The translations under genes were made by a program, and so were the position numbers. This document shows positions 1 through 55,240 of a DNA stretch of 63,800 nucleotides, one piece after another. The DNA comes from Minisyncoccota bacterium (GTDB taxonomy: Bacteria; Patescibacteriota; Minisyncoccia; Phycocordibacterales; Phycocordibacteraceae): assembly GCA_039927695.1 (NCBI GenBank), contig JBDSUM010000020.1, positions 1-63,800 on the forward strand, in the 5' to 3' direction. Each line of letters begins with the position of its first letter. Position 1 is the first letter of the stretch. The notes under the pieces are model-generated. The model searched no databases and was not told where the DNA came from. It saw only the letters and a program-made list of their open reading frames with translations.

Positions 1-23
1 GTCGGGGATAGTATTACCCCGAC
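1..23 (+). promoter_or_regulatory. Rolling-circle replication origin stem-loop of CRESS-DNA-virus type, carrying the nonanucleotide TAGTATTAC (9-17)
   Basis: Read directly: 1-7 GTCGGGG pairs with 17-23 CCCCGAC. The loop carries the circovirus/nanovirus nick-site nonamer TAGTATTAC. It lies 24 nt upstream of a Rep gene. Confidence 0.8.
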
Positions 24-39
24 TTCGGGACATTTGGAC
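20..39 (+). repeat. Iteron-like triplet CGAC/GGAC/GGAC at 20-23, 28-31 and 36-39 (8-nt period) beside the origin hairpin
   Basis: Read directly in ccccGACttcgGGACatttGGAC. The position matches where Rep-binding iterons sit in circoviruses. The repeats are short, so chance is possible. Confidence 0.3.
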
Positions 40-46
40 AAAACTT

Positions 47-946
47 ATGGATAAGCAGCTTAAAAGTCGGAGATTTTGCTTTACGATTCCGAACTACTCG
101 GAAGAAGATTTAGAGCGTTTTCACATACTTGCTCAAGAACTGAAGGATCATTGCTACATCTCGTATGGAATTGAAACTGGAGAAACTGGATTTCCTCATA
201 TCCAAGGCTACGTTGAACTCTATACAGCTCAACGATACGCATATCTACAAAAGTATTTTGACTTCAAGAAAGATGGTGAGTTATTAAAATTCCATGTCGA
301 GAAAGCAAATGGTACCGCTGAAGAAAACCGGAAATATACTCAAAAAGAAGGCAATAGCTTTGAATATGGAGAACCTTTAAAGCAAGGTTCTCGTACTGAC
401 TTAAGTGAGATTAAAGAAGCTGTAAGTATGTCCCCTAGAGATATTACAAAGATAGTTCACAACCTCATACAAAATAATCAGCAACTGAAATTTGCAGAGG
501 GTTTGCAACGTTATTATCTTCCTCATCGAGACCCTGCTATTCCTCCGAGAGTATTTTGGCTTTACGGGCAAACTGGCATTGGTAAGACCTCTCTCGTATT
601 TAGAACATTTAAGGATATCTGCGCTGTGTCCTCATATGACTGGCTTGGAACAGACTATATGCAAAACGAGTGCTTCCTTCTAGACGATTACCGAGGATTT
701 GATATTAACTTTAACGAACTACTCCGTCTCACTGATCGTTTTCCGTATACGCTCTACTTCAAAGGTGGGCAAATACCATTCAATTCTCCGTACATTGTGA
801 TTACCTCGCCCTTAAGTATTGACCAGACTTTTAGAGGAAATAATGAGAATCTCCAGCAGCTAAAACGCCGTGTTATTGAGATAGACCTTGATATGGAGCT
901 GGATATAGATTCTATTAATTTGAGGAATTATCAAGAAGGAGCATAA
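47..946 (+). CDS. rep: CRESS-type replication initiator Rep (HUH endonuclease fused to SF3 helicase)
   Basis: 299 aa. HUH motif I CFTIPNY, motif II PHIQGYVEL, motif III YTQKEG. Walker A GQTGIGKTS, Walker B FLLDDY, motif C VITSP. The block LLRLTDRFPY..KGGQIPF parallels circovirus Rep. Confidence 0.93.
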   Translation: MDKQLKSRRFCFTIPNYSEEDLERFHILAQELKDHCYISYGIETGETGFPHIQGYVELYTAQRYAYLQKYFDFKKDGELLKFHVEKANGTAEENRKYTQKEGNSFEYGEPLKQGSRTDLSEIKEAVSMSPRDITKIVHNLIQNNQQLKFAEGLQRYYLPHRDPAIPPRVFWLYGQTGIGKTSLVFRTFKDICAVSSYDWLGTDYMQNECFLLDDYRGFDINFNELLRLTDRFPYTLYFKGGQIPFNSPYIVITSPLSIDQTFRGNNENLQQLKRRVIEIDLDMELDIDSINLRNYQEGA

Positions 947-2439
947 TGCGGCTAAGTATGAAATATCTCATATACGCACGTAAGTCCTCAGAAAGTGAAG
1001 AACGCCAAGTACTCTCTATTCCTGCACAGTTAAGCGAACTGAAAGATATAGCTGAAAAAGAAGAATACGAGGTAGCTAAAATCTTTGAAGAAAGTATGTC
1101 TGCTAAGGCTTCTGGCCGTCCGTTGTTCAATCAAATGCTAGAGCTAATTCAGAAAGGTAAAGGATATTCTCTACTCGTTTGGAATGTAGACCGCCTTGCT
1201 CGAAATATGGTTGATGGTGGTATGCTCCTTGAGCTCATGGATCAAGGCAAGATTCTGGAAATTCGCACTTACGAACGTACCTATCGCAATACTCCTGACG
1301 ATAAGTTTATGATGTCGCTCTACTTCGGTATGGCTAAGAAGTATGTTGACGATCTCTCCGTAAACGTTAAGCGAGGTAACTTAGAAAAACTTAAGCGTGG
1401 TGATTGGACAAGTCGTGCTCCATTCGGTTATTCAAATAATAAAGCGACAAAGACAATAGCTGTTGATACTGTTCGCGCTCCATATGTTCATGAGATGTTT
1501 GAACTCTATTCCACTGGTCTGCATAGCTCACAAGACATTTCAAACCTCCTATACGAAAAAGGTCTGCGTTCTTCTTCTGGAAAGAAAATATATAAATCGG
1601 GCGTACAGAAGATAATTAACTCTCGTTTCTATACAGGAATCATGGAAGCTAATGGAAACGAGTATTTAGGAAATCACGAGCCACTCGTATCTACTCAACT
1701 CTTTGAAAAGTGCAAAGAAGTATCAGACAAGAAAGCACGTCGTACTCGTCCTAAAACACTAAGCTTTACACTCTCTGGCTTCATGACGTGTGCCAATTGC
1801 GGTTGCGCCATAACTGCTGAACTCAAGAAGAATAAATATATCTACTATCACTGCACTAATGGAAAAGGTATTTGTGATCAACGCTCATTTAATGCCAATG
1901 AGACTGAACTGCATAAGCAAATCACTCTCGACCTAAAGAAACTGAAGATTAGCCCGAGAATGATTGATATTGTCTACAAGGCCAAGCTCGAAGAATTGGA
2001 ACATTCAAAGGGAACAGGTGATCATGCATTAGAAGACGCTCAGAAAGCCCTTAAATTGCTCGCCACACGCAAGTCTAGACTCGTAGACACCTATACCGAG
2101 GGAGACATAGATACCGACCTCTATAGGGCTAAACTAAGAGAAATAGATAACGAGAACGTTCGCCTCACTAAGCGCATAGCTGATTTAGAGAAAGAAGTCT
2201 CTGACCCACTCGCAACTATCGAACTCATCTATTCCAAGTTTAAAGAAGGTATTTCCTTGTCGGAACGGTACAAAGCAGTTGAACCTAGCGAAAGACGCAT
2301 CATACTCTCAGAAGCACTATCGAACTCCACTCTACTAAATCGAAATATCGCAGAGATACAGTACAAAAGTCCGTATAACATATTCGCTTTAGCACCCTTA
2401 AACCCTACTTTTTCAGAAATGCTGGCGGGGTCGGTCTAG
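946..2439 (+). CDS. Large serine recombinase (resolvase/invertase catalytic domain, recombinase domain, zinc ribbon, coiled coil)
   Basis: 497 aa. N-terminal LIYARKSSESEE and VWNVDRLARN. Zinc ribbon CANCGC..YYHCTNGKGIC. The ATG overlaps the rep stop (TAATG at 944-948), with SD GAAGGAG at 935-941. Confidence 0.9.
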   Translation: MRLSMKYLIYARKSSESEERQVLSIPAQLSELKDIAEKEEYEVAKIFEESMSAKASGRPLFNQMLELIQKGKGYSLLVWNVDRLARNMVDGGMLLELMDQGKILEIRTYERTYRNTPDDKFMMSLYFGMAKKYVDDLSVNVKRGNLEKLKRGDWTSRAPFGYSNNKATKTIAVDTVRAPYVHEMFELYSTGLHSSQDISNLLYEKGLRSSSGKKIYKSGVQKIINSRFYTGIMEANGNEYLGNHEPLVSTQLFEKCKEVSDKKARRTRPKTLSFTLSGFMTCANCGCAITAELKKNKYIYYHCTNGKGICDQRSFNANETELHKQITLDLKKLKISPRMIDIVYKAKLEELEHSKGTGDHALEDAQKALKLLATRKSRLVDTYTEGDIDTDLYRAKLREIDNENVRLTKRIADLEKEVSDPLATIELIYSKFKEGISLSERYKAVEPSERRIILSEALSNSTLLNRNIAEIQYKSPYNIFALAPLNPTFSEMLAGSV

Positions 2440-2551
2440 AACTCTATTATATTAAGCCTCCGTTGCGCCTCAGAGCGAATTTGAGTGTTGATAAAACGAT
2501 GGGAGTCGGACAGTGATTTAATCCACGCACTGGACCGATTACGGTACGGCA

Positions 2552-2818
2552 TCAACCAAAGGTCGCGCCTCTTAAAGAGAAAAGTAAATACAGGAACGCG
2601 ATCGCAGCAACTAAGATACTAACATCAATGAATAGTAGAACCAGGCGAAGGATCTTATCAGAAGTTTTGGTAAATGTTCGCATCCTTGCATAAATCAGAT
2701 GCCATACCGCCAGGACAGGACCGATCACAGATGACAAGAATAGGATCGTCCAATTTGAATCTGAGAATCCTATCGTAACTAAAACGAAGAGTGCGATGTA
2801 CCCTGCGATAAATATCAT
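2552..2818 (-). CDS. Small hypothetical membrane protein (about 3 TM helices). The ORF is open up to 2914, so the start is uncertain.
   Basis: Hydrophobic segments IFIAGYIALFVLVTIGF, ILFLSSVIGPVLAVW and LVLLFIDVSILVAAIAFLYLL. No recognisable family. Confidence 0.4.
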   Translation of the reverse strand: MIFIAGYIALFVLVTIGFSDSNWTILFLSSVIGPVLAVWHLIYARMRTFTKTSDKILRLVLLFIDVSILVAAIAFLYLLFSLRGATFG

Positions 2819-2951
2819 ATCGGTAATTGTGTTACGAAGAAATAAATGAGCAGGCCAGGATTCATATACTCTATGCATACCACACATGCTGCTTCTGTAC
2901 GGGCATATCGACACAATGAGCCGCGGATGCTAAACACTAGCCTCAATCGGG

Positions 2952-3036
2952 CGGAGAGGGGGAGATTCGAACTCCCGATACCTTTCGGCATGCCGGTTTT
3001 CGAAACCGGTCGTTTCAACCACTCACGCACCTCTCC
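2952..3036 (-). tRNA. tRNA-Ser: tRNA-Ser (anticodon CGA), long variable arm, no encoded CCA
   Basis: Acceptor GGAGAGG/CCTCTCC. Anticodon arm CCGGT-TTCGAAA-ACCGG. T arm GGGAG-TTCGAAT-CTCCC. Confidence 0.9.
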
Positions 3037-3103
3037 GTGGTTTCGACATCCTAGCATTTTTGGCCTAGAAAATGTAGGATAGCAAGGTGAGAGTTCGCAG
3101 AAA

Positions 3104-3175
3104 GGTCCCATCGTCTAACGGTTAGGACGCCCGCCTTTCACGCAGGAAATCGGGGTTCGATTCCCCGTGGGATCA
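3104..3175 (+). tRNA. tRNA-Glu: tRNA-Glu (anticodon TTC)
   Basis: Acceptor GGTCCCA/TGGGATC. Anticodon loop CTTTCAC. T arm GGGGTTCGATTCCCC. Confidence 0.9.
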
Positions 3176-3181
3176 TGCAAC

Positions 3182-3220
3182 CAGAAAGCCGCCCACATGG
3201 CATATGTGAGCGGCTTTCTG
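3182..3220. terminator. Bidirectional hairpin terminator between tRNA-Glu and the pirin gene
   Basis: CAGAAAGCCGC...GCGGCTTTCTG, plus inner CACAT/ATGTG pairing. Confidence 0.7.
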
Positions 3221-3232
3221 CATTATCTACTG

Positions 3233-3940
3233 TTACTGCATCAGAACCTCAATAACAAGAAGCTCAGATGACTCGAGTGCGGAAATGTCTGCAGTAGCAG
3301 CATCTGTAACACCCATAGCGTCTCGTGCAAACAATGTTTCACCCTGCACTTCGATACTTCCGGATATAACAAATAGGTATATTCCATTCCCTTCTATGCG
3401 GGTGTTGTAAGAACTGGCGGTTCCCTTTTCCAATACAAGTTTAGAAATATACGCGTCTTGGTTAATACCCAGACCTTTCTTCGTGTCTTCAGGGCCAACT
3501 AAGAGAGTGGTGTTTTCATTCTTTTCGTTTGAAATACTTGCCTGTGCGTATCGCGGAGCAATACCAAGCTTCTTAGGAAGAATCCAGATCTGGAAAAGTT
3601 CCAATGCCTCTGTGGTCGATGCATTGTATTCAGAGTGAGCGACACCAGTTCCAGCAGACATAACCTGCACTTCTCCTGCTCGTACGGTTCCGACATTTCC
3701 CATATTATCTTTGTGCGTCAATTCACCGCTCATTACTATGGTGATTATTTCCATATCCCGGTGCTGGTGCATGCCGAAACCATTGTCTGCACTAATACGG
3801 TCATCATTTATAACAATGAGTTTTCCAAAGCCTGTGCGAGCGGGATTGTACCAATCGGCAAAGCTAAAGCTGTAACGAGTCGTAAGCCAGCCATAGTCTC
3901 CTCGTCCGCGATCCCCTGCGCGATGTACGACGTTGTTCAT
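3233..3940 (-). CDS. Pirin family protein (bicupin)
   Basis: 235 aa. N-terminal GDYGWLTTRYSFSFADWYNP and the metal-site region FGMHQHRDMEIITIVMSGELTHKD, both typical of the pirin/YhhW family. Confidence 0.85.
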   Translation of the reverse strand: MNNVVHRAGDRGRGDYGWLTTRYSFSFADWYNPARTGFGKLIVINDDRISADNGFGMHQHRDMEIITIVMSGELTHKDNMGNVGTVRAGEVQVMSAGTGVAHSEYNASTTEALELFQIWILPKKLGIAPRYAQASISNEKNENTTLLVGPEDTKKGLGINQDAYISKLVLEKGTASSYNTRIEGNGIYLFVISGSIEVQGETLFARDAMGVTDAATADISALESSELLVIEVLMQ

Positions 3941-3988
3941 CCCATAAGTATGCCTTACCGCGTGTGAAGGATACGTGGGGACAATTAA

Positions 3989-4023
3989 AATACCGCCAAT
4001 TCCTAAAAGGAATTGGCGGTATT
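3989..4023 (-). terminator. Rho-independent terminator of the 4038-4364 gene
   Basis: AATACCGCCAATTCC-TAAAA-GGAATTGGCGGTATT, followed by a T-run on the minus strand. Confidence 0.75.
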
Positions 4024-4037
4024 GAATATGCCTGATT

Positions 4038-4364
4038 TCACCATCGTATGACAGTTATCAAATATCCAACCATCGCAAGACATGCAACACCGCACAGTGC
4101 ATTACAAAGTGCACGTAAGACTCTTGGGTGACGGTACTGCAAATACGTAAGTATGGCCGCACCAATTGTAAATGGCAGTATTGTCGTCGAAAGTCTCAGT
4201 GTGTAACAAAATCTCTTGAGAGATAGGATTGATGGCACTGGCAGATTGACGTGGATAATGCACTCAGCGCTAATGCCAGTGACAAACATCAACACGCTGT
4301 ACATAACAAGGAACGAATACAATACGCGGAGCAGTGACCATGCTCGCGATATAACACGACGCAT
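4038..4364 (-). CDS. Hypothetical small membrane protein
   Basis: 108 aa with about 3 hydrophobic helices. It has its own terminator. No recognisable family. Confidence 0.5.
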   Translation of the reverse strand: MRRVISRAWSLLRVLYSFLVMYSVLMFVTGISAECIIHVNLPVPSILSLKRFCYTLRLSTTILPFTIGAAILTYLQYRHPRVLRALCNALCGVACLAMVGYLITVIRW

Positions 4365-4485
4365 GACAATTCTCCTTTCTAAAAGCGTTTGCTATACAAT
4401 ATACCACTTATTTAGCTTTAAGCAAAGCCCATAGCTCTCTTCACTATTTGAATCTGGTAGTAAATACGGTATCCTTCTGACTATT

Positions 4486-4561
4486 GCGCGGTTAGCTCAG
4501 TTGGTAGAGCGCGTCATTGACGTTGACGATGTCGGGGGTTCGAATCCCTCACCGCGCACCA
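4486..4561 (+). tRNA. tRNA-Val: tRNA-Val (anticodon GAC) with encoded CCA
   Basis: Acceptor GCGCGGT/ACCGCGC. Anticodon arm CGTCA-TTGACGT-TGACG. T arm GGGGG-TTCGAAT-CCCTC. ACCA end at 4558-4561. Confidence 0.92.
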
Positions 4562-5412
4562 TGGAAAACCCAAGAACTATCGTTCTCTATCACGGAAACT
4601 GCCCTGACGGGTTCGGTGGTGCTTACGCTGCGTGGAAGAAATTTGGTGACACTGCTGAATACATGCCGTTGCATCATAACCGGCCAGCGCCACTTGAGAT
4701 TAAAGATTCCATTTTGTACTTCATCGACTTCTGTTACCCAAAGAATGTTATGGATCAATTCGTGGCACAAAATAAAGACGTTACGGTTCTTGACCACCAC
4801 GAAGGTCTCGAAGAAGTAGTCGAGACTATGCCGCATTATGTGTACGACTCAAATCGCTCGGGTGCCACTATTGCATGGTCATACTTCCATCCAGAAATTC
4901 CCGTTCCACAAATGTTTAAGTATGTTGAAGATGGGGATCTATACCGCTTTGTACACCCAGAAGGACGCGCAATACTCGCCTATGTATATGCGCAGCCATA
5001 CACATTTCCATCATGGGAGTCCTTGATTGCAAGAGTAGAGTCTGAGGAAGGGCGAGCTGCAATAAGCAACATTGGAACAACATATCTCGAATACAAAACG
5101 ATACTGATGAAGCAGATAGCTGCTACTGCTGAACCTGTTCGCTTTGAGGGGTATGAATGTATGCTTGCTTCTGCATCACGTGTATTTGTCTCAGACGTAG
5201 GGCACGAGTTATACACCGCGCATCCTCCCATTGCACTTGTGGTTAATACTCGAGTCGATGGTCTACGCGTTTCCATGCGTGGAGACGGCACCGTTGATCT
5301 TGCGAAGATTGCTCAAAAGTATGGAGGCAATGGTCATTTCAGTGCAGCTGCGTTCTCACTCCCCTGGGGCACTCCTATTCCTTGGGAAGTGGTGAAGAAA
5401 GAAGAGGTGTAA
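4561..5412 (+). CDS. DHH-family phosphoesterase (DHH/DHHA1, NrnB-like)
   Basis: 283 aa starting MENPRTIVLYHGNCPDGFGG. Motifs VLDHHEG and GGNGHFSAAAF. The track ORF start at 4501 lies inside tRNA-Val, so the ATG at 4561 is used. Confidence 0.8.
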   Translation: MENPRTIVLYHGNCPDGFGGAYAAWKKFGDTAEYMPLHHNRPAPLEIKDSILYFIDFCYPKNVMDQFVAQNKDVTVLDHHEGLEEVVETMPHYVYDSNRSGATIAWSYFHPEIPVPQMFKYVEDGDLYRFVHPEGRAILAYVYAQPYTFPSWESLIARVESEEGRAAISNIGTTYLEYKTILMKQIAATAEPVRFEGYECMLASASRVFVSDVGHELYTAHPPIALVVNTRVDGLRVSMRGDGTVDLAKIAQKYGGNGHFSAAAFSLPWGTPIPWEVVKKEEV

Positions 5413-5422
5413 GATTTTAATA

Positions 5423-6610
5423 ATGAAGATACTCGCAATTGAAACCTCCTGCGATGAAACGGCAGTAGCTGTGCTTGAGTGCGAATCTACTGGCGAAGGG
5501 AACGCTGCGCGCTTTACGGTGCTCGGCAACGCGCTTTTATCACAAATTGAGATACACCGAGAATTTGGTGGTGTATACCCTGCTGTCGCTAAGCGAGAGC
5601 ACGCAAAGAACTTAGTTCCCCTTTTAGAAAGCGCGCTTGCTGAAGCAAACATGCTTCACGAAGATACTCAATCTATGGATTCGGGTGTGCACGATGCCAT
5701 TACGGCAACACTTGAGCGCGAACCAGGACTCACGGAAGCATTCCTTGCATCCATTGGTGAGATGGAGAAGCCCGAGATTGATGCTATAGCCGTTACGGCA
5801 GGGCCAGGGCTTGAGCCGGCTTTGTGGGTTGGCGTTAATTTCGCTAAGGCATTGTCACTTGCATGGGACAAGCCAATTGTTTCGGTAAATCATATGGAGG
5901 GTCATATTTGTACTGCACTTGCTACTTCCACTGACCAATCTCTCGATATCCCCTCAACTGAACTCCCTCTCCTTTCACTTCTTATTTCTGGTGGTCACAC
6001 CGAGCTAGTACTAGCGCGCGAATGGCTTTCATATGAACTCATAGGTGCAACGCGAGACGATGCGGTTGGTGAAGCATTTGATAAGGTGGCACGCATGCTT
6101 GGACTCCCCTATCCAGGAGGTCCTGAGATTTCAAGACTTGCTGAACTCGCACGAGCACGCGGTGGAGAGAATCCCTATACTCTCCCGCGACCAATGATTC
6201 ATGATCCCCATTGCGACTTCTCCTTCAGCGGACTTAAGACATCTGTCCTCTATTTAGTTAAAGATAAGGAACTAAGTGAGACACAAAAAGAAGACCTCGC
6301 TCTAGCCTTTGAAGACGCTGTGGCAGACGTGCTGTACGCAAAGACAAGTCGTGCGCTTATGGATACGAGCGCAAAAACACTCGCTCTTGGTGGTGGCGTG
6401 TCAGCAAACACTCATATTAAGCGCGCGTTCGCAGAGCGGATGGCAGCAGACTTCCCCGATGTGCGTCTATGCATTCCTGCTGCTTCGCTCACGTCTGACA
6501 ACGCACTTATGATCGGCATGGCTGGTTTTTATCACGCCGCAAAAGGCGACTTCGTCGTCCTCGACGAGCTTAAAGCCAATGGCAACCGTAAACTCGCTGA
6601 CGCAGCGTAA
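5423..6610 (+). CDS. tsaD: tRNA N6-adenosine threonylcarbamoyltransferase TsaD (Kae1/Gcp family)
   Basis: 395 aa. MKILAIETSCDETAVAV, VNHMEGH, SGGHTEL, and FSFSGLKTS blocks. Confidence 0.9.
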   Translation: MKILAIETSCDETAVAVLECESTGEGNAARFTVLGNALLSQIEIHREFGGVYPAVAKREHAKNLVPLLESALAEANMLHEDTQSMDSGVHDAITATLEREPGLTEAFLASIGEMEKPEIDAIAVTAGPGLEPALWVGVNFAKALSLAWDKPIVSVNHMEGHICTALATSTDQSLDIPSTELPLLSLLISGGHTELVLAREWLSYELIGATRDDAVGEAFDKVARMLGLPYPGGPEISRLAELARARGGENPYTLPRPMIHDPHCDFSFSGLKTSVLYLVKDKELSETQKEDLALAFEDAVADVLYAKTSRALMDTSAKTLALGGGVSANTHIKRAFAERMAADFPDVRLCIPAASLTSDNALMIGMAGFYHAAKGDFVVLDELKANGNRKLADAA

Positions 6611-6650
6611 CTAAGGCAAATCCGCCCTGTATTTGCTATAGTAAGAGCAA

Positions 6651-8765
6651 ATGCTTAGCGAAAACGACGAAAACGGAAAGTTTCTAAAACCGTACGATCC
6701 CGCTGCGACCGAAGGTCGTATATATAAGGTGTGGGAAGATAGTGGCTATTTCAATCCTGACAATTTGCCGAATGCCGACTCCCGCAAGCCGTTCACTATC
6801 GTCATGCCACCGCCGAACGCAAACGGTAACCTCCATGCAGGCCATGCCCTTTTCGTAACCCTCCAAGACCTCATGATTCGCTTTAAGCGAATGCAGGGAT
6901 ACAAGGCTCTCTGGATTCCCGGCGCAGACCATGCAGGGTTCGAGACTCAGGTCGTGTACGAAAAGAAACTTGAAAAAGAAGGCCGTTCTCGCTTTGGAAT
7001 GGACCCTAAAGAGCTCTACGCAGAAATCCTGGAGTTTACACTCGCGAACAAGTCGATTATGGAAGGTCAGGTTAAAGCGCTCGGAGCGTCATGTGACTGG
7101 TCACGTGAAAAATTCACCCTAGATCCAGACGTCGTTACCCGAGTTCAACAAACATTTATAAAGATGTTTGTTGACGGTCTCATATACCGTGGCAAACGTA
7201 CCGTTAACTGGTGTCCAAAACATCAAACGTCTCTTTCCGACATTGAAACTGAGAGTGTCGAAGAAAACACACCCTTCTATACCTTTAAGTATGGTCCATT
7301 CGATATTGGTACCGTGCGTCCAGAGACAAAGTTTGGTGACAAGCATGTCGTAATGCATCCAGACGATATGCGCTACGCGCAGTACAAGCATGGGGACACA
7401 TTCGATCTTGAATGGATCAATGGTCCTATTACCGCGACAGTCATAAAGGATTCATCCGTTGATCCAGAATTTGGTACGGGTGTTATGACCATTACTCCCT
7501 GGCACAGTCAGGTGGACTTCGAGATCGCAAAGCGTCACAACCTCGACATGGAACAGATTATCGACTGGCGAGGCAAACTCCTTCCAATCGCTGGGGAATT
7601 TGAGGGTATGAAGATTACTGAAGCTCGTGCAAAGATTATAGAGAAACTGGCTAGCAAGGGTCTTTTAGTATCTATCGATGAGAAATACCAAAATGTTGTG
7701 AAGCGATGCTACAAGTGTTCGACTATGATCGAGCCACAGGTTAAGGATCAGTGGTTCGTAAAGATGGCTCCGCTCGCACAAAAAGCTATCGAAGCAGTGA
7801 ATGCTGGCGAAGTGAAGTTTATTCCTGACCACGAAGAGAAAATCTTCCGACATTGGATGGAGAACACGCTCGACTGGAATATTTCTCGCCAAATAGTATG
7901 GGGCATTCCCATACCTGCCTGGTTTAAAGATGGCGACGCTATTGCAAGCCTTGAATCACCTGGTGAAGGATGGGTTCAGGATATCGATACCTTCGACACC
8001 TGGTTCTCCTCAGGACAATGGCCGCTGATGACCACAGGGTATCCGGATGGAAAAGATTTTGAAACACACTACCCTACTGACGTCATGGAAACAGGGCGCG
8101 ATATTATTTTCTTCTGGGTTGCGCGTATGATTTGTTTTGGATTGTACCTCACTGGTAAGGCTCCATTCCATACCGTATATCTGCATGGTCTTGTGAATGA
8201 CGCGCACAATAAGAAAATGTCTAAATCAAAAGGTAACGTGATTAATCCGCTTGAGCTTACAGAAAAATATGGAACCGATGCACTTCGCATGGCACTTGTT
8301 GTAGGAAATACACCGGGTACTGATCTTGCACTTCGCGAAGACAAGATTAAGGGTTATAAGAACTTCGCAAATAAGCTTTGGAATATTGCGCGTTTTATAC
8401 TTGAAAGCACTGAAGGATATGATCCATCGGCTGCTCTCTCAGAAAATGATCAAGTGATACGTTCTGAATTCGATACCATTATCGCTGACGTTACCAAAGA
8501 TATGGAGGCATATCGCATCTATCTCGCTGCCGAGAAGATATACCACTACGTGTGGGATCGTCTTGCAAGCGAATTGCTTGAAGATTCGAAGCAAATATTT
8601 GCTGCAAGTGACGAAGTTGCTAGCGCATCTCGTAAAGCACTCTTGCGTTCACTTCTTAATGACGTTCTAAAAGTTCTTCATCCTTTCATGCCATTTGTTA
8701 CTGAAGAAATATGGCAGAGTCTCTCCGATACTCAGGGATTATTAATGATTCAAGAGTGGCCGTAG
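6651..8765 (+). CDS. valS: Valine--tRNA ligase (compact form, no C-terminal coiled coil)
   Basis: 704 aa. HIGH-type NLHAGHA and KMSKSKGN motifs. ValRS blocks WIPGADHAGFETQ, TVRPETKFGD and GTGVMTITPWH. Confidence 0.88.
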   Translation: MLSENDENGKFLKPYDPAATEGRIYKVWEDSGYFNPDNLPNADSRKPFTIVMPPPNANGNLHAGHALFVTLQDLMIRFKRMQGYKALWIPGADHAGFETQVVYEKKLEKEGRSRFGMDPKELYAEILEFTLANKSIMEGQVKALGASCDWSREKFTLDPDVVTRVQQTFIKMFVDGLIYRGKRTVNWCPKHQTSLSDIETESVEENTPFYTFKYGPFDIGTVRPETKFGDKHVVMHPDDMRYAQYKHGDTFDLEWINGPITATVIKDSSVDPEFGTGVMTITPWHSQVDFEIAKRHNLDMEQIIDWRGKLLPIAGEFEGMKITEARAKIIEKLASKGLLVSIDEKYQNVVKRCYKCSTMIEPQVKDQWFVKMAPLAQKAIEAVNAGEVKFIPDHEEKIFRHWMENTLDWNISRQIVWGIPIPAWFKDGDAIASLESPGEGWVQDIDTFDTWFSSGQWPLMTTGYPDGKDFETHYPTDVMETGRDIIFFWVARMICFGLYLTGKAPFHTVYLHGLVNDAHNKKMSKSKGNVINPLELTEKYGTDALRMALVVGNTPGTDLALREDKIKGYKNFANKLWNIARFILESTEGYDPSAALSENDQVIRSEFDTIIADVTKDMEAYRIYLAAEKIYHYVWDRLASELLEDSKQIFAASDEVASASRKALLRSLLNDVLKVLHPFMPFVTEEIWQSLSDTQGLLMIQEWP

Positions 8766-8822
8766 GGTACAATTAGCGGTAACGCGCCGCCAAGCCAAGC
8801 TGCTAAGCACGTACTACAACAA

Positions 8823-9581
8823 ATGGAGTTCCTTAATTCGGTATCGTTCTCAACACTTTGTTTCGCCTTCGTAGGCGGCATGCTTCCTGCATTATTGTGG
8901 TTGTACTTCCTTCTTAAAGAAGACTATCGCCACCCAGAACCTCGCACCATTTTACTTATGGCCTTTATGGCCGGTATGGCTGCCGTGCCACTTGCTGTAC
9001 CCTTTGAAGCGTACTTCAGAGACTACGCGTATAGCATTGTCCCTGGTTGTTCTCCTTATGCTTCACTTTGTTTCCCTATTATTACCGGCTGGGCGATTAT
9101 CGAAGAAACACTTAAATATTTGCTTGCGGCAGTTGTGGTGTTGTGGCGCCGCGACGTAGACGAATCAATTGACTTGGTTATTTACATGATCACGGCGGCG
9201 CTTGGTTTCGCGGCGCTCGAGAACATGCTGTTCCTCATTGAACCTTTTGCAGCACACGACTACCTCGCAGCACTCGCCACCGACAATCTTCGTTTCGTTG
9301 GCTCAACACTACTTCATGTTATTGCTTCAAGTGCTATTGGTTTCTCTCTCGCATTTGCGCACAAACTTCCCTGCTGGTATCGCGGTTTTGCTGCATCCGC
9401 AGGACTTATCCTTGCGATCGCATTGCACACGACGTTTAATTTCCTTATAATTCCTCGAGACGACTCGCATAGCATCCTAAGTGCATTCTTGTTTGTTTGG
9501 AGCGGTGCTGTCGTATTGTTCGCACTCTTCGAATTATTAAAATACTTCCAGTATAGAGACGAACCAATAACTACTGTTTAG
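8823..9581 (+). CDS. PrsW-family intramembrane metalloprotease
   Basis: 252 aa, multi-TM. Motifs IIEETLKY, AALENMLF, LLHVIASS and LHTTFNF. Confidence 0.8.
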   Translation: MEFLNSVSFSTLCFAFVGGMLPALLWLYFLLKEDYRHPEPRTILLMAFMAGMAAVPLAVPFEAYFRDYAYSIVPGCSPYASLCFPIITGWAIIEETLKYLLAAVVVLWRRDVDESIDLVIYMITAALGFAALENMLFLIEPFAAHDYLAALATDNLRFVGSTLLHVIASSAIGFSLAFAHKLPCWYRGFAASAGLILAIALHTTFNFLIIPRDDSHSILSAFLFVWSGAVVLFALFELLKYFQYRDEPITTV

Positions 9582-9600
9582 CTTACCTACTTATTTACGT

Positions 9601-10110
9601 ATGAAAAAACGATCTTTCTTCGAACGACTTTCCGGCTCAGTTCCGGTAACAGACGACTATGACGCATTCGAAGATGACGTCGTGCCTGCACGTCGCCTTG
9701 CTCCTGCCCAAGCTCCTATGACCACAAGCTCTACGCCACAGATTCACGCTGCCTATGATGACCACGAGGATACTGAGAGCGAAGGACAACTTCCTGTAGA
9801 TGTATACCAAACAGCAAGTGAGATCGTTATCCGCACATTCATCGCAGGCGTACGCGCTGACGAAATCAACCTTTCTATAAGTCGCGACATGGTAGTCATC
9901 GAAGGAGCTCGTGCAGAACGCGAAACTATCCAGGATTCAGACTATTTCATTCGTGAACTCTTCTGGGGTACGTTCTCTCGAACAATCCTCCTCCCTCAGG
10001 AAGTAGACGTCGATAACTCAAGCGCGAATGCTAAAGACGGTCTTCTTACCCTCATCCTTCCTAAGCTCGACAAGGCAAAGCAGACAAAGCTTCGCGTTAA
10101 AGCAGGATAG
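9601..10110 (+). CDS. Hsp20/alpha-crystallin small heat-shock protein
   Basis: 169 aa. Alpha-crystallin domain LPVDVYQT..VIRTFIAGV..GTFSRTILLPQEVD..DGLLTLILPK. Confidence 0.85.
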   Translation: MKKRSFFERLSGSVPVTDDYDAFEDDVVPARRLAPAQAPMTTSSTPQIHAAYDDHEDTESEGQLPVDVYQTASEIVIRTFIAGVRADEINLSISRDMVVIEGARAERETIQDSDYFIRELFWGTFSRTILLPQEVDVDNSSANAKDGLLTLILPKLDKAKQTKLRVKAG

Positions 10111-11196
10111 TTAGCGAACTTCAGTTATTAGCGTTGGCTCGGAGCTCTCGTTCACCACAGTGAACGAGAGTTTTCCCATTACCTGGCCGTCAATTGTCTG
10201 TACTATCACACGCCACTTGCCTGCTTGAGGATCGGATTTCATTGAGTATCCTCGGTAGCCTTGCTCCCTTCCACCTGATAGCGGGAAAGCAATCGATGCC
10301 TCATCTATCCACTTCTTACTTATCGGGTTATACCACTGCCAGTGGTGCACGATGGTTGTTGTAAAGTCACCAGGCGCAAATATTGAGCTAAAGGCATAGA
10401 GCGGTGTTCCAGCTACATGATGCACAATCTGTATGCGTGGATCGAACCATGCCCGCACAGGCTCTCCAGTGAGCGCGTACATGCCCTCTGTGTGTGTAAT
10501 GGAATGGTATATACCGCCAGATTTAAGAGCAAGAGGAATTGGCGGCAATAGGTTTGTTAGATATGCAGAAACAATGAGAAAGGTCGCGATGGCAGCGGAG
10601 ATGAGAATGAGATTCAAAGCTCTGCGCAAGCGCTTCCAGCCTAAAAGACCGAGCAAGAGTAAGTACACAATAAATGCAGCAATAGTAAGCGTCGTACTTT
10701 CAAGAAATACTATCTTTCCTAACCTTCCGAGGTAGAGCGGGAGAGCAAATATTGAAAAAGCATACAAGGAGAAAAAGATGAGGAGTGATTGAAAGACTAA
10801 GTGGTCGCGATAGTTACGAAACACCTCGTTACCAAAGAAGATGAGTCCGAGAAGTATGAGGAACGGCCATGACACGGAAAGCACCGCACTCTTTGTATAA
10901 AAGATGAGAAAACCTGATAGCAAGCTACCGATCACAAACTGAGCCAGAAGTGGGCCGAGAATAGTTATGGAACGTCTTAATTTACCTCCCTGCTTACTAG
11001 CTGCTCTGTGGGAAATTAACGTCACCACAATAACAATCACCAAGTACGCAACAAACAACTTTATTACGGACGGTAAGTTTAATAATCCAAACGTAAGCAG
11101 GTCACTTACGAAGCCTCCAATAAACAGTGCCGTTGCGAGTGGACGCTCGTAGCGCTGTGCGAAAGCCAGAACGGTTTCGAAGCGTAAGTGCGTCAT
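10111..11196 (-). CDS. Multi-pass membrane protein with a C-terminal DUF2914-like domain
   Basis: 361 aa, about 8 TM helices. C-terminal IVHHWQWYNP..GYRGYSMKS..GKWRVIVQTIDGQ..SFTV resembles DUF2914, recalled from memory. Confidence 0.65.
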   Translation of the reverse strand: MTHLRFETVLAFAQRYERPLATALFIGGFVSDLLTFGLLNLPSVIKLFVAYLVIVIVVTLISHRAASKQGGKLRRSITILGPLLAQFVIGSLLSGFLIFYTKSAVLSVSWPFLILLGLIFFGNEVFRNYRDHLVFQSLLIFFSLYAFSIFALPLYLGRLGKIVFLESTTLTIAAFIVYLLLLGLLGWKRLRRALNLILISAAIATFLIVSAYLTNLLPPIPLALKSGGIYHSITHTEGMYALTGEPVRAWFDPRIQIVHHVAGTPLYAFSSIFAPGDFTTTIVHHWQWYNPISKKWIDEASIAFPLSGGREQGYRGYSMKSDPQAGKWRVIVQTIDGQVMGKLSFTVVNESSEPTLITEVR

Positions 11197-11199
11197 TTG

Positions 11200-11272
11200 T
11201 GCTTGGAGCCGGATTCGAACCGGCGACCCCTTCCTCTTCAGGGAAATGCTCTACCAACTGAGCTATCCAAGC
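11200..11272 (-). tRNA. tRNA-Phe: tRNA-Phe (anticodon GAA)
   Basis: Acceptor GCTTGGA/TCCAAGC. D arm GCTCAGTTGGTAGAGC. Anticodon loop CTGAAGA. T arm CCGGTTCGAATCCGG. Confidence 0.92.
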
Positions 11273-11353
11273 ATGTGTACTGCCCAGTCCAATGACTGAG
11301 CAATATGGCTATCCTACCATGCCTTACAAATTCTTTCAGCCCCTCCAAACAAG

Positions 11354-11665
11354 CTACTTGCTCGTGCTGCTGGCGATGGAGGCACGATATGAATTCATTA
11401 TATCCTGGATTTCTGTAGGCGATGGGAAGCCAAAAAGACTACCTCCTGCCTTGCTCGTGTCAGATGCAGGGATGAAGGTTCGCACGAATGGACCTAGGAG
11501 TATGAATGGGAGGACGAGGATAAGGAGCCACATAACTGCCTTGGTCCAGAATGCGAGTCGTCCTGTGCGAACTAAAGTTCGTAGGAGCTTATTGTTCTCT
11601 TCCGCAAGATCAATAGAATCTTGCACGAGTTGTTCCAAGCGCGAGATTGATGCTTCGTCGTTCAT
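11354..11665 (-). CDS. Hypothetical small membrane protein (N-terminal coiled segment, one TM)
   Basis: 103 aa. TM AVMWLLILVLPFILLGPFV. It sits between the 8-Cys protein gene and tRNA-Phe on the same strand. Confidence 0.5.
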   Translation of the reverse strand: MNDEASISRLEQLVQDSIDLAEENNKLLRTLVRTGRLAFWTKAVMWLLILVLPFILLGPFVRTFIPASDTSKAGGSLFGFPSPTEIQDIMNSYRASIASSTSK

Positions 11666-11686
11666 AGCTTCAAATAGTGTAGCAGG

Positions 11687-12418
11687 TTACGCGCCTGATG
11701 GTGTCTGGAGACACGTAAGCAATTCTTTGCTTTGTGTCCAGCCACACTTACCACTCGACTGACGCTCACATGCGGCTGTCTTGTAGCACGCATACTCAGA
11801 ACGATAGATACACGTAGAAACAGCGCCCGGTGTGTCTGAACATAGTTCAGACGAGCAACCACCGATGTAACAAGGTCCTGCTGATATTGGTCCTGTAGTA
11901 ACAGGATGTGGCTCTACCAGAATAGTGAACCGATATGAACTCGCAACAGGAGCTCCGTCTTTTTCATGCGGAGGTGTAACGCTCACAAACGTAATGTCAT
12001 CAGTGCCAACTGTTATAACCTTACCAAGTGCCAAATCATGGTTTGTGGTGCCAGTCTTCGTTGTTGTCTTGAGTGTTATGCGGACAGTACCAGCTTGGAT
12101 ACATTGCACGCCTACAGGACAACGACTATCTTCAAGTACCGCTGTTGGTCGCACAGAAAGCCCGTCCTTAAAGCCCGCAGATTGATTGAGTGCGAGTACA
12201 ACAGAACCGTACGGATAGTACCTGACTACTGGAGTGCCCGTAGTTGTATGAGTAGTGGTTGAGGTCGTTGTGGTAGCTATCTGCGCAGCAGGAGTCGTGG
12301 TAGACGTTGGTGGCAAAATAGCTGCGATAGGGCGAATACTGTGTACGACCAGCCAAATACCTATAGCGAGAGCAAGGACGATGACGGCACCTGGAATGAA
12401 GAAGTCTTTCTTTTGCAT
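11687..12418 (-). CDS. Membrane-anchored secreted protein with a Thr-rich linker and a C-terminal eight-cysteine domain
   Basis: 243 aa from the ATG at 12418; the longer track ORF runs into tRNA-Arg. C-terminal CYIGGCSSELC..STC..YAC..AAC..GKC..LTC has exactly 8 Cys. Confidence 0.65.
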   Translation of the reverse strand: MQKKDFFIPGAVIVLALAIGIWLVVHSIRPIAAILPPTSTTTPAAQIATTTTSTTTHTTTGTPVVRYYPYGSVVLALNQSAGFKDGLSVRPTAVLEDSRCPVGVQCIQAGTVRITLKTTTKTGTTNHDLALGKVITVGTDDITFVSVTPPHEKDGAPVASSYRFTILVEPHPVTTGPISAGPCYIGGCSSELCSDTPGAVSTCIYRSEYACYKTAACERQSSGKCGWTQSKELLTCLQTPSGA

Positions 12419-12469
12419 ATAGGTAGTATACCGCCTATTTCCTATGTCTGCAGGGTCTAGTGGATATCG

Positions 12470-12544
12470 TGGTGCCCTCGGCAAGAATCGAACTTACATC
12501 GTCTCGTTAGGAGTGAGATGCTCTATCCATTGAGCTACGAGGGC
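12470..12544 (-). tRNA. tRNA-Arg: tRNA-Arg (anticodon CCT) with encoded CCA
   Basis: Acceptor GCCCTCG/CGAGGGC. Anticodon loop CTCCTAA. T arm GTAAG-TTCGATT-CTTGC. Confidence 0.88.
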
Positions 12545-12572
12545 AATAGGGGCACATGAAGGACAGTAGCAC

Positions 12573-12601
12573 GAAAGCGCCCTCCAAAGGAGGGCGCTTT
12601 C
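12573..12601 (-). terminator. Hairpin terminator downstream of the glutaredoxin-like gene
   Basis: GAAAGCGCCCTCC-AAA-GGAGGGCGCTTTC, a perfect 13-bp stem. Confidence 0.7.
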
Positions 12602-12612
12602 TCTATAACTAC

Positions 12613-12855
12613 TTACGCTGCAATCCCTGCGAGTGAAGCCAATCTCTCCTTATCGAAGCCAACCATCATCTCGTCACCGACGAAGATAACCGGTACTCCC
12701 ATCTGACCGCTCTTCTCAATCATTTCCTGGCGCTTTGCAAGGTCTGTCTGCACGTCATAGTCCGTAAATGCTACGTTGTTTTCCTTGAGGAAATCCTTCG
12801 CCATATGGCAGAAGTGGCAAGTTGGCGTGCTGTAAATAGTGATGTTCTTATCCAT
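12613..12855 (-). CDS. Glutaredoxin-like protein (NrdH/YruB-like)
   Basis: 80 aa. Redox motif TCHFCHMAKDFL and the GVPVIFVGDEMMVGFD block. Confidence 0.85.
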   Translation of the reverse strand: MDKNITIYSTPTCHFCHMAKDFLKENNVAFTDYDVQTDLAKRQEMIEKSGQMGVPVIFVGDEMMVGFDKERLASLAGIAA

Positions 12856-12933
12856 AAAAGTTTGATTACTTCCCTGTCAGTATACCATTTTGGTTATCCC
12901 CAGGTGGCCGTCCGGAGTGATATTCGAACTCTA

Positions 12934-13893
12934 CTATTTAAATACGAACGATCCACTATCCATCTTTAGGGTCAAGACTAACTCCCCTTTTGAAGTAAAT
13001 AGATAGCTCTGCGATTCGCTAAGCATTTTATTAAATTGAGTCTCTTGTGAAGAGGGACAATACATGAGTGTCGACGTCATATCGCCAAACGTAATGTTCT
13101 TACCACTAGTACTATACGTGCCAGAAATTGAATTACAGTCCGTTGTTGCGGAAAATCTCCCATTCGCGGAAAACTTTATTACAAATGCCGACGTCTTGTT
13201 TGGCGTTACCGTTGTTCCATCGCTATAAAGCGTATGGATCCATGTCCAGTCTTTCATACCGAGAGACATGCTCGAAGGATTTGCTTCGCCTCCAAAGTTT
13301 TGAGCAACTTCTCCAAATTTCATGGTGCTAGGGTCGAGTAAAAGCCAGACACTTTTCCCAACAGAAGGTTGTACTGCAAAACTCTCTCCCGCTTTCCTGT
13401 CTGCGTAATTTATTACAACAACATTCTTTTGAGCTGGGTTACTACTCATCTGTGTTGTTTGTGGAGCAATTCGATCACCCAGTAAAAAGCCCTGTGAACC
13501 TTTGTATCCGCTAGCGGTGTTAAGAGCTGCTACAGCATAATAGAATGTTCCGCTGCCTCCGCCTGTTTGTGTAAGAAGAAAAACAGTATCAGGTCTACCA
13601 TCACCATCTAGATCGTGTGTAACTTCATTTCCAAAATACTTGGTAATTAATTTTGATGCTGAACCCGGTGCTATTTCGCTTTCCGCCACACCATTCACCA
13701 GTGTTACAGGTTTACCCTCTATGTTGTATGTCGCATTTTTAAAGCCTGAGCCGACTTCTGTTGTAGTTGGTGGTATAACTTCTGCAATGTCAGACTGCTG
13801 AATCGGGTGGAGAAGAATAAAGGTAATTATTCCTACGATAGCTATACATGCTACGGTTACCGGAATTACGTATCGTCTTTGGCTGGACGTCAT
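12934..13893 (-). CDS. Membrane-anchored protein with a C-terminal META (HslJ-like) domain
   Basis: 319 aa with an N-terminal TM. DLDGDGRPDTVFLL repeat-like motif. C-terminal FSANGRFSATTDCNSISGTY..ITFGDMTSTLMYC resembles a META domain. Confidence 0.65.
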   Translation of the reverse strand: MTSSQRRYVIPVTVACIAIVGIITFILLHPIQQSDIAEVIPPTTTEVGSGFKNATYNIEGKPVTLVNGVAESEIAPGSASKLITKYFGNEVTHDLDGDGRPDTVFLLTQTGGGSGTFYYAVAALNTASGYKGSQGFLLGDRIAPQTTQMSSNPAQKNVVVINYADRKAGESFAVQPSVGKSVWLLLDPSTMKFGEVAQNFGGEANPSSMSLGMKDWTWIHTLYSDGTTVTPNKTSAFVIKFSANGRFSATTDCNSISGTYSTSGKNITFGDMTSTLMYCPSSQETQFNKMLSESQSYLFTSKGELVLTLKMDSGSFVFK

Positions 13894-13976
13894 TGTTACT
13901 AAGTATACTGCCTGTTGTATGAATAATGGATGACAGTCTAAGATTCGAACAGTATTAGTCTATCGGAAACACAAAA

Positions 13977-45042: not shown

Positions 45043-45059
45043 AAAAATGTAATGAGTTA

Positions 45060-45347: not shown

Positions 45348-45515
45348 GGCTCGGGACTTAGTAAGTATAGCGTGTTCAGGGTGAACGGGAGGTTAATCCA
45401 CAGCACTTCGCATCGGCATGAGCACCTGACACGCAGCCCCTGCTACATGGCGCCAGGGACTCACGCCTCGCCAGGTCATCTAGATATAACAGTCTCGGGC
45501 GATATTCGAACAAAT

Positions 45516-45956: not shown

Positions 45957-45964
45957 AAGAATGA

Positions 45965-53217: not shown

Positions 53218-53218
53218 T

Positions 53219-55236: not shown

Positions 55237-55240
55237 GAGT

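Follow-up and report, generated by a model that had tools for sequence, protein, structure and literature searches.

A circovirus-type Rep linked to a large serine recombinase in the chromosome of Patescibacteria: a probable integrative rolling-circle plasmid without a capsid gene

Replication initiators (Reps) of the type found in DNA viruses with circular, single-stranded, Rep-encoding genomes (CRESS viruses) are also encoded by bacteria, and nine groups of such bacterial Reps, pCRESS1–9, have been described in four phyla (Kazlauskas, Varsani, Koonin & Krupovic 2019, PMC6668415). If groups 7 and 9 are set aside, 97.5% of these Reps lie in elements that are integrated site-specifically, mostly at tRNA genes; the elements encode tyrosine integrases, are bounded by attachment site (att) direct repeats of 13–88 bp and have no capsid genes (PMC6668415). 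One group, pCRESS3 of the Actinobacteria, which includes plasmid p4M, has the HUQ form of Rep motif II, as do circoviruses, nanoviruses and smacoviruses (PMC6668415). Here we describe an element at the left end of contig JBDSUM010000020.1 (assembly GCA_039927695.1, a Minisyncoccota bacterium) in which a circovirus-like Rep is followed by a large serine recombinase. The window referred to below is this entire contig of 63,800 nt, and the left side of the element is absent from that assembly. Positions 1–2426 are very probably the right-hand two thirds of a capsid-less integrative rolling-circle plasmid of ~3.5 kb, residing in the chromosome of a Candidatus Paceibacterota bacterium (Patescibacteria, or candidate phyla radiation).

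With the pCRESS elements this element shares a two-domain viral-type Rep, the lack of a capsid gene, site-specific chromosomal integration and variable cargo, and with pCRESS3 in particular the HUQ motif; the YLxH signature of pCRESS4–8 is not in its Rep, where motif III reads YTQK. It differs from them in having a large serine recombinase and a core of 4–6 nt in place of a tyrosine integrase and repeats of 13–88 bp, and in its hosts, which are Patescibacteria rather than the four other phyla. Its size of 3.5 kb compares with ~3.3 kb for the smallest of the integrated pCRESS1–6 elements considered and with 5–28 kb for most of them (Supplementary Table 1 of PMC6668415). The first-pass annotation, made from the nucleotide sequence alone, was aware of no such Rep paired with a large serine integrase. 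No prior description of CRESS-type Reps in Patescibacteria, or of their pairing with serine recombinases, was found in a literature search that left subscription journals mostly outside its reach, and that part of the claim stands; viral-type Reps in integrated bacterial elements, on the other hand, were already known, with tyrosine integrases (pCRESS1–9, PMC6668415). What is new is the pairing with a serine recombinase and the host phylum, while the kind of element is a pCRESS-type integrated plasmid and not an integrated virus. A further parallel is offered by the small pSAM2-type integrative elements of actinomycetes, which likewise combine a rolling-circle Rep with a tRNA-targeting integrase and replicate after excision, as this element is proposed to do. 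Their Rep, of the RepSA type, is unlike CRESS Reps and has no SF3 (superfamily 3) helicase domain; the integrase of pSAM2 is of the tyrosine class, and these elements carry an FtsK-like transfer protein, whereas the window's element has no transfer gene.

Integration is evident from the coexistence of occupied and empty alleles. The pirin protein encoded beside the element is also present, with identical sequence, on a 43-kb contig (L062) from another sample (run SRR26386597), and this contig is 100% identical to window positions 2421–13940 (11,520 nt). To the left of the breakpoint L062 carries host genes (DUF1761, PAP2, endonuclease V … FtsZ, FtsA) and neither Rep nor recombinase; a second contig, L065, also crosses the empty site. 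P0143, a host protein encoded across the empty site from pirin (named ‘Candidatus Paceibacterota bacterium’ at NCBI), recurs on L066, a 2.9-kb contig from a third run, whose host flank is 100% identical until six bases beyond the breakpoint, where element DNA joined through GCTGGC begins. Three-way comparison of the window, the empty site and this left junction defines the attachment sites: (i) attB, CTGAGATGATTG-GCTGGC-GGGGTCGGTCTAGAAC, on L062; (ii) attR, TTTTTCAGAAAT-GCTGGC-GGGGTCGGTCTAGAAC, in the window; and (iii) attL, CTGAGATGATTG-GCTGGC-CTTGTGGGACGACGTTAGAAC, on L066. The core common to all three is the 6-nt GCTGGC at window positions 2421–2426, which falls within the recombinase reading frame and places the right edge of the element at 2420/2426 rather than at 2439. 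No further copies of the att arm were found in the window. The element is evidently chromosomal, as the first-pass annotation had proposed when it placed the Rep and recombinase inside a bacterial chromosome and suggested a search for the empty site, and it is evidently recently mobile in this population. Its description of the rest of the window as ordinary chromosome is likewise confirmed by the tRNA genes, pirin, TsaD, BipA and a DEAD helicase found there.

These junctions also dispose of the concern, raised in that annotation, that a eukaryotic CRESS virus contig had been misjoined to bacterial DNA or was a contaminant. The concern has some basis in the position of the feature at the very end of the contig and in the break of the contig inside the hairpin. 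An artefact of this kind has next to no probability when the 2420/2421 junction lies inside the recombinase open reading frame (ORF) and is of a site type common to dozens of independent assemblies, when relatives lie mid-contig on contigs of up to ~1 Mb, and when the matching left junction comes from an independent assembly and the empty allele on L062 has a right flank 100% identical to that of the occupied one.

The extension to the left of position 1 that the first-pass annotation called for was obtained in part: the left junction and the left part of the element are on L066, a contig of another assembly, and the join to the window is an inferred one. We take L066 and the window to be the two halves of one element because their ends, …CTCGAAG and GTCGGGG…, restore the conserved 11-bp stem of the origin hairpin described below when they are overlapped by one base. 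The element reconstructed in this way would be ~3.5 kb long and comprise, in order, the left-end site, a TrmB-family winged-helix regulator (244 aa, opposite strand, Pfam 1.2e-15), a divergent intergenic region of ~200 nt, a 47-aa ORF, Rep and the recombinase. Between its attL and attR these four ORFs are the only ones, with no capsid gene among them, so that the absence of a visible capsid gene in the window extends to the recovered left side; nor was a transfer ATPase, coupling protein or pilus gene found in the reconstructed element. As a separate observation, two independent assemblies break at the identical nucleotide, in the left arm of the hairpin (at window position 1 and, on the reverse complement of L066, at its last base). 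This is likely to reflect a ~37-nt origin identical among co-occurring elements, at which an assembly graph built with k=31 would branch; other possible causes are a change in coverage or a DNA end that is real.

The 299-aa protein is a circovirus-like Rep, as first annotated. Both profile searches that had been suggested gave matches above the curated cut-offs, to Pfam Viral_Rep at residues 8–101 (E 6.3e-11) and to Pfam RNA_helicase (SF3) at residues 171–254 (E 4e-6), and the best solved relative is full-length Rep of porcine circovirus 2 (PCV2; 7lar), with an alignment that spans residues 8–255 (E 6.4e-21). The motifs CFTIPN, PHIQGY (the HUQ variant), YTQKEG, GQTGIGKTS, FLLDDY and VITSP follow one another in the order originally listed; the last of them, motif C, is not canonical, having Pro (ITSP) where PCV2 Rep carries the sensor Asn (ITSN). 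The Rep thus has the HUH plus SF3 architecture and motifs of the Cressdnaviricota (Circoviridae, Nanoviridae), and it is accompanied, as in those viruses, by a nonanucleotide of the NANTATTAC type, here TAGTATTAC, in a hairpin loop just upstream of rep. The element departs from the Cressdnaviricota in its motif C, in the lack of a capsid gene in the attL–attR interval, and in being located in a bacterial chromosome together with an integrase. Exact-sequence look-ups for the window's Rep and recombinase returned no recorded match.

The stem-loop origin reported before Rep is real and incomplete in the window, since the start of the contig cuts its left arm. The hairpin reads GTCGGGG-ATAGTATTA-CCCCGACTTCG, with the nonanucleotide at positions 9–17, 30 nt upstream of the Rep start. 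Relatives have a stem of 11 bp, CGAAGTCGGGG/CCCCGACTTCG, of which the window is missing the first four left-arm bases; these four are the end of L066. Folded as single-stranded DNA, the hairpin with its full stem has a ΔG of −13.6 kcal/mol (z −6.4), and the truncated window version −7.8. An equivalent hairpin lies ~40 nt 5' of Rep in 36 sequence variants from related loci, with the nonanucleotide constant and the stems varying by compensatory substitutions among six stem variants (GTTGCCATAG/CTATGGCAAC, GGGTCGAGG/CCTCGACCC and ATGTCGTG/CACGACAT are examples). Because the stem covaries while the nonanucleotide stays constant, there is good evidence that the hairpin would function as a structure. 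By analogy with the established circovirus and nanovirus origins, nicking is presumably to be expected between T15 and A16. Further AGTATTAC 8-mers occur in the window in a number close to chance expectation. The hairpin is read through by the 3' end of a small ORF, which the composite of L066 and the window gives as 47 aa. An ORF of 52–77 aa (ORF-B) occupies the same position in fourteen related loci and has a conserved N-terminal motif, FSxxLIxEYQxEM…AQIQLxSLV; this motif is missing from the 47-aa ORF, which is a no more than putative coding sequence in the window's element.

The ORF that follows Rep was annotated as a 497-aa serine recombinase with overlapping stop and start codons, and both features are upheld. 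Three Pfam domains are matched above their cut-offs (Resolvase 3.7e-22, Recombinase 4.7e-14, Zn_ribbon_recom 1.5e-8), PHROG 95 integrase is matched at 6e-81, and weak PDB matches are found to the solved serine recombinases 3guv and SPbeta recombinase 9dxh; its YARKSS sequence aligned with the catalytic region of 3guv. The Rep stop and the recombinase start overlap by one base (TAATG, 944–948), and because the genes overlap co-transcription as an operon is plausible. Both genes are under strong purifying selection. For Rep, pN between relatives (the proportion of non-synonymous sites that differ) is 0.13–0.22, against a saturated synonymous pS of 0.71–0.86; the corresponding ratio of substitution rates, dN/dS, is 0.07–0.09 for the recombinase; and for Rep and recombinase relatives overall non-synonymous divergence is 0.12–0.22 with synonymous sites saturated and dN/dS at most 0.09 where estimable. 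The window copy has no loss-of-function substitution at HUQ or Tyr97 of Rep or at Ser14 of the recombinase.

Large serine integrases are known from SPbeta and are used also by A118, phiC31 and Bxb1. The present enzyme resembles that of SPbeta in its catalytic, recombinase and zinc-ribbon domains, and its sites resemble those of this class in having a very short core, no long direct repeats, and the weak dyad symmetry of unidirectional-type att sites. The reconstructed attP (junction TTTTTCAGAAATGCTGGCCTTGTGGGACGACG, within …TTTTTCAGAAATGCTGGCCTTGTGGGACGACGTTAGAAC…) is unlike attB on both arms, and the comparison is consistent with the mode of large serine recombinases, in which attP and attB differ and recombine at a very short core. 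In contrast to the phages and integrative elements that use such integrases, the partner replicon here would be neither phage nor conjugative element but a 3.5-kb rolling-circle plasmid. The target is the very last part of tRNA genes at their 3' end, into which the integrase ORF reads in antisense; attP appears to lie inside the integrase gene so that the C-terminal tail is swapped on integration, and no directionality factor is recognisable.

The recombinase ORF runs antisense into a tRNA 3' end in 18 of the 31 relatives with a complete recombinase (12 Gln, 4 Ser, 1 Pro, 1 Asn), and in 16 of these 18 the tRNA end is 0–3 nt from the end of the conserved recombinase alignment. The B' arm of attR in the window resembles an antisense tRNA 3' end, while the B' arms of relatives are real ones; for the window's element and a few others the target is just a ~22-nt sequence that resembles a tRNA 3' end. 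The tRNA gene would be left intact because the core spans the last acceptor-stem bases and is common to both partners. In one locus (L069, 7418–7775) the target tRNA gene is itself split by a group I intron (Rfam 78.6 bits, 7454–7737); ARAGORN found this tRNA only after in silico removal of the intron, and its anticodon call varies with the splice point.

On the opposite side, the left-end site is a conserved 27-nt motif, GCTGGCnGTCTGGGACGAnGTTAGAAC, located 2.3–6.5 kb upstream of Rep in relatives, and it displaced an earlier candidate for the left boundary, the start codon of ORF-A. Family loci totalling 316 kb contain 39 copies of the motif, and 37 of the copies have the orientation of Rep and recombinase. 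The motif is not a general host repeat, there being no copy in the window and none in the 183 kb of empty-site and CRESS virus contigs used as controls. Its first four bases covary with the right-junction core of the same locus: they are GCTG in most loci, GCGG in L002 and L013 (both of which target tRNA-Ser and have a motif copy), GCTA in two others and GCTC in one. Because of this covariation the copies are taken to be attL partners, and pairing of attL with attR gives element sizes of 3.5 to 8.9 kb. Crossover most likely takes place at about core positions 3–4, that is, at the TG of window positions 2423–2424.

The left-end motif also bears on the end of the recombinase gene. The conserved protein stops at …FSEML, and the last six codons of the ORF (…AGSV*) are host DNA. 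Translated in the frame of the recombinase, which is how an excised circle would present it, the left-end motif encodes LAVWDDVRTF… and then a stop, so that the tail of the reconstructed circular form is …LALWDDVRTILSF in place of the integrated …AGSV. Among the motif copies mean entropy is 0.85 at third codon positions and 0.40 and 0.42 at the other two (permutation p 0.015), and codon differences from the motif consensus are 66 synonymous to 53 non-synonymous in the recombinase frame, compared with 21/106 and 20/100 in the other frames. On the strength of the reconstructed attP and of this codon-phase conservation, we infer that the recombinase gene spans attP and that integration swaps its last ~13 codons. 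A precedent exists in SSV1 of the archaeal fuselloviruses, where attP lies inside the integrase gene and integration partitions it; there the enzyme is a tyrosine recombinase and the gene is divided into two large parts, while only the last ~13 codons of a serine recombinase would be exchanged here.

Several relatives have arrays of the left-end motif in the same orientation, with copies 0.3–1.2 kb apart (L012 1356–3686; L006 4968–6598 and 18113–18737, minus strand; L070 909–2643; L002 5436–7003; L001 13164–14216). Each interval holds a single small ORF in L006, and one or two in either orientation in the other arrays; some copies are found right of the element or next to what remains of the 3' end of a recombinase gene. 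One such relic, a copy of ~95 nt in L006 (17226–17322, minus strand) that is 71–76% identical to several elements, is inverted, lies 4.8 kb to the right of the element and adjoins two att-motif copies; it is probably what remains of an earlier element. A speculative reading of these arrangements, which we regard as doubtful, is that the family is the serine-recombinase counterpart of an integron on a rolling-circle replicon. It is suggested by the left-end site being at once the P' half of attP and the coding sequence of the integrase tail LAVWDDVRTF, by the same-orientation arrays, and by the cargo between the left-end site and the conserved genes, which is rich in defence and toxin–antitoxin genes. 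If it were true, the recombinase would capture single-gene cassettes at attP, each bringing a fresh site that completes the integrase gene. The arrays could also be debris of successive elements that were stacked at one tRNA site and decayed.

The pairing of Rep with a serine recombinase is reproducible. The family set comprises 43 distinct loci after removal of duplicates, with flanking host genes that vary from one locus to the next; 39 of the 43 have at least 150 nt downstream of Rep, and the recombinase is the next gene in 38 of these 39; together with the occupied and empty alleles, this supports the original suggestion of a rolling-circle element that integrates through a serine recombinase. 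The Rep also has abundant bacterial relatives, contrary to one possibility that the first-pass annotation had entertained: the homology search returned 153 protein clusters, the best 120 of the 153 at 46–72% identity, many of them on contigs of 0.1–1 Mb named Candidatus Paceibacterota, Minisyncoccia or ‘PAT2’. Further loci came from scans of one-genome-per-species and JGI metagenome collections; the genome-collection scan found nothing with a single Rep query and 11 loci with an alignment query. Metagenome-assembled genomes (MAGs) with named hosts belong to Paceibacterota, Kaiserbacteria, Nomurabacteria, Minisyncoccia and Saccharibacteria, plus one Crocinitomicaceae, so that all but one are Patescibacteria. 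The exception (L018, contig JBLIKX010000007.1) has tRNA-Asn as its target and a hairpin that is divergent and covarying; its MAG carries the label Crocinitomicaceae (Bacteroidota), which reflects either a binning error or spread beyond Patescibacteria.

Besides its core genes the window's element carries only the divergently transcribed TrmB-like regulator. In relatives the cargo between attL and the conserved genes is variable and rich in defence and addiction genes: Pycsar cyclases (two PycC) with a PycTM effector, Shedu SduA, type II restriction–modification, GmrSD, AbiJ, PIN_8, YafQ/RelB, ParE and an Imm5-like immunity protein. One relative has an FtsK/SpoIIIE gene. A larger upstream protein, ORF-A (289 aa), is conserved in ten relatives, upstream of the origin, and absent from the window's element and many other members. 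It was considered as a capsid protein and rejected: neither Pfam nor PHROG has a family for it, a confident AlphaFold model (pLDDT 86.7) is helical with winged-helix-like parts rather than a jelly roll, and the model has no fold match in PDB or BFVD at E <0.001.

Outside the family, Rep similarity falls off sharply. In the metagenome scan identity drops from at least 47% (family) to at most 32% (viruses), and within-family identity of 44–72% is separated by a clear gap from the 31–36% of the closest environmental CRESS genomes. IMG/VR contains no family member; its best match, 36% identical, is an ordinary two-gene CRESS virus, the best matches at 31–36% are circular CRESS genomes of ~2 kb with an arginine-rich capsid ORF, and most of the IMG/VR CRESS genomes examined carry a NAGTATTAC nonanucleotide. 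Among 72,556 plasmids the single match is p4M RepA (27.5% identity over 65% of the Rep length), so that this Rep is much less like p4M than like the environmental CRESS viruses (36%), p4M being the sole pCRESS Rep compared. The phylogeny that had been suggested was carried out as a rough neighbour-joining tree rooted on p4M, the only pCRESS member in it and its most distant sequence: the 36 Reps from Patescibacteria form a single clade, with six environmental CRESS genomes as its sister group. The tree has no support values, and the placement beside those genomes is only a lead.

These affinities are what could be said for an integrated single-stranded DNA virus, that is, a bacterial provirus of CRESS type with a capsid gene either beyond the window or diverged past recognition. 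Its Rep and nonanucleotide are virus-like, its nearest relatives outside the family are capsid-encoding genomes to which the family is sister in the rough tree, and ORF-A has no known function. A provirus is nonetheless highly improbable: the attL–attR interval has no room for a capsid gene, ORF-A is missing from this element and many relatives and is modelled as helical, the cargo of relatives consists of defence and toxin–antitoxin genes, and the family has no member in IMG/VR.

Nor is the integrative plasmid likely to be an inactive relic, with Rep and recombinase decaying or domesticated and the element immobile. Degraded relatives do exist (a truncated recombinase in L073, partial ones in L078 and L081, and the 3'-end relic in L006), no circular form was found, and motif C lacks its canonical Asn. 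Against these stand the coexistence of occupied and empty alleles with 100% identical flanks in near-identical populations, the intact state of both window ORFs with all catalytic motifs, the low non-synonymous divergence cited above, and the position of the element beside different tRNA genes in different genomes. A relic is accordingly judged very unlikely.

Several findings weigh against the integrative rolling-circle plasmid that we favour. The join between L066 and the window consists of a 1-nt overlap and a rebuilt stem, between contigs of different assemblies. The circular junctions that were looked for did not appear: no excised circle and no single-stranded form came to light, the 43 family loci include no circular contig, terminal repeats are absent from all family contigs, and the P|core|P' junction typical of attP does not occur in the DNA examined; some contigs of 3.4–3.8 kb considered as excised circles proved to be linear pieces of integrated copies ending in tRNA genes. 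There is no candidate for a recombination directionality factor, TrmB, ORF-A and ORF-B having no match to known factors; these factors are too diverse to be excluded by sequence. Motif C has Pro in 34 of 36 family Reps examined and the canonical Asn in none, and since all 36 lack that residue the SF3 helicase activity of Rep cannot be taken for granted. Finally, cell-to-cell transfer by natural transformation, which this account invokes, is speculative.

In a variant of this account Rep acts mainly as a stabiliser or transfer relaxase, replicating the excised form only transiently or supplying single-stranded DNA for export, with no long-lived free state. The ICEBs1 relaxase does replicate its excised form transiently, HUH nucleases act as relaxases elsewhere, and the integrated state is the sole state observed. 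The FtsK/SpoIIIE gene in the cargo of one relative has counterparts in p4M and pCRESS1–3 elements (PMC6668415). The window's element, however, has none of the transfer genes listed above, and its Rep belongs to the replication initiators and brings an SF3 helicase of its own. We consider this variant unlikely without being far-fetched; it would refine the integrative plasmid rather than exclude it. Transposition of the rolling-circle kind, as in IS91 or Helitrons, was also considered, but the element is bounded by a serine-recombinase att pair for which a matching empty site exists, and the idea was rejected on that ground.

The data presented above have led us to propose a model for the life cycle of the integrative plasmid. 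The recombinase would first join attP to a chromosomal site that is, or mimics, a tRNA 3' end, with crossover within the short core, GCTGGC in this case; the occupied and empty alleles are the basis for this step. As the recombinase frame crosses attP, its last ~13 codons (…LALWDDVRTILSF) would be replaced by host sequence (…AGSV), as the reconstructed attP and the codon phase suggest. Excision would be carried out by the same recombinase with a directionality factor, whereupon Rep may nick the loop of the TAGTATTAC hairpin and initiate rolling-circle copying via a single-stranded intermediate, as in circoviruses and pCRESS plasmids; homology and conservation point to this step. Having no capsid, relaxase or transfer gene, the element would spread by other means, of which natural transformation is the most plausible, if speculative. 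Natural competence and transformation have been established experimentally in Saccharibacteria, which are Patescibacteria (PMC10633639).

The family adds a fifth host phylum and a different class of integrase to the bacterial elements with viral-type Reps. Bacterial plasmids with such Reps are held to be ancestors of the CRESS-DNA viruses (PMC6668415), and the Rep and origin of this family are much closer to circovirus-like viruses than is p4M, the sole pCRESS Rep compared; the family is a candidate for a nearer plasmid relative of these viruses or, alternatively, for a viral Rep captured by bacteria. Metagenomic pipelines use CRESS-type Reps as markers of eukaryotic viruses and drop bacterial host predictions (PMC12796364); the CRESS-type Reps of this family are bacterial and common in Patescibacteria. 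The larger relatives, which ferry Pycsar, Shedu, restriction–modification and toxin–antitoxin genes, would provide a route for the exchange of defence genes among ultra-small bacteria. To our knowledge no plasmid or integration vector is available for Patescibacteria, and a 3.5-kb unit with a replication initiator, an origin, an integrase and defined attP and attB could be a starting point for one, given the natural transformability of Saccharibacteria (PMC10633639). The features of the element, its flank and the related loci are collected in Table 1.

Table 1. Coordinates of features in the window and, where an L number is given, in related loci
Feature	Position	Strand	Details
Rolling-circle origin hairpin	1–27	+	7/11 nt of left arm (1–7), loop ATAGTATTA (8–16), right arm CCCCGACTTCG (17–27)
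Small ORF, 3' end	1–54	+	Reads through hairpin (…EVGDSITPTSGHLDKTYG*); stop overlaps Rep start
Rep (HUH nicking endonuclease fused to SF3 helicase; HUQ variant)	47–946	+	299 aa, intact; Pfam, PCV2 Rep match, 153 homologous clusters
Large serine recombinase (integrase)	946–2439	+	497 aa; predicted catalytic Ser14 in YARKSS; codons from 2421 are host DNA
attR	2395–2447 (outer limits approximate)	+	P arm, last conserved recombinase codons (…CCTACTTTTTCAGAAAT); core 2421–2426; B' arm GGGGTCGGTCTAGAAC
Host right flank, attB half-site onward	2421–3940		100% identity to element-free L062
Membrane-protein ORF	2552–2914	-	120 aa; host right flank
tRNA-Ser(cga)	2949–3037	-	Host right flank
tRNA-Glu(ttc)	3104–3175	+	Host right flank
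Pirin	3233–3940	-	Pfam; host right flank
Defence/toxin–antitoxin cargo, examples	L003 3592–5655; L002 7382–7966		Between attL and conserved genes
LOOT RNA	L006 8665–8780(-); L002 8761–8877(-); L010 4309–4425(+); L061 702–817(-)		Inside or just left of elements
LOOT RNA	L077 269–382(-); L069 4299–4414(-); L019 4543–4664(-); L087 1773–1887(-)		Inside or just left of elements

Eight elements are associated with a LOOT RNA (Rfam RF03000, a candidate small RNA), with scores of 51–82 bits against a gathering score of 46.4. In five of the eight a DUF559 (Vsr-like endonuclease) gene of the same strand follows the RNA match immediately on its 3' side, and this linkage may provide a genomic context for an otherwise orphan RNA motif. 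Elsewhere in the window, two stretches (45000–48000 and 53000–56000) have a low GC content of 0.35–0.42, compared with about 0.48, and contain an M23 peptidase, a beta-propeller protein, unannotated small ORFs and the start of a giant ORF. The latter (55241–63391, minus strand) encodes 2,716 aa with SpvB, FG-GAP, RHS-repeat and Ig-like domains, lies in a lower-GC stretch and looks like a giant toxin-complex or polymorphic-toxin-like surface protein.

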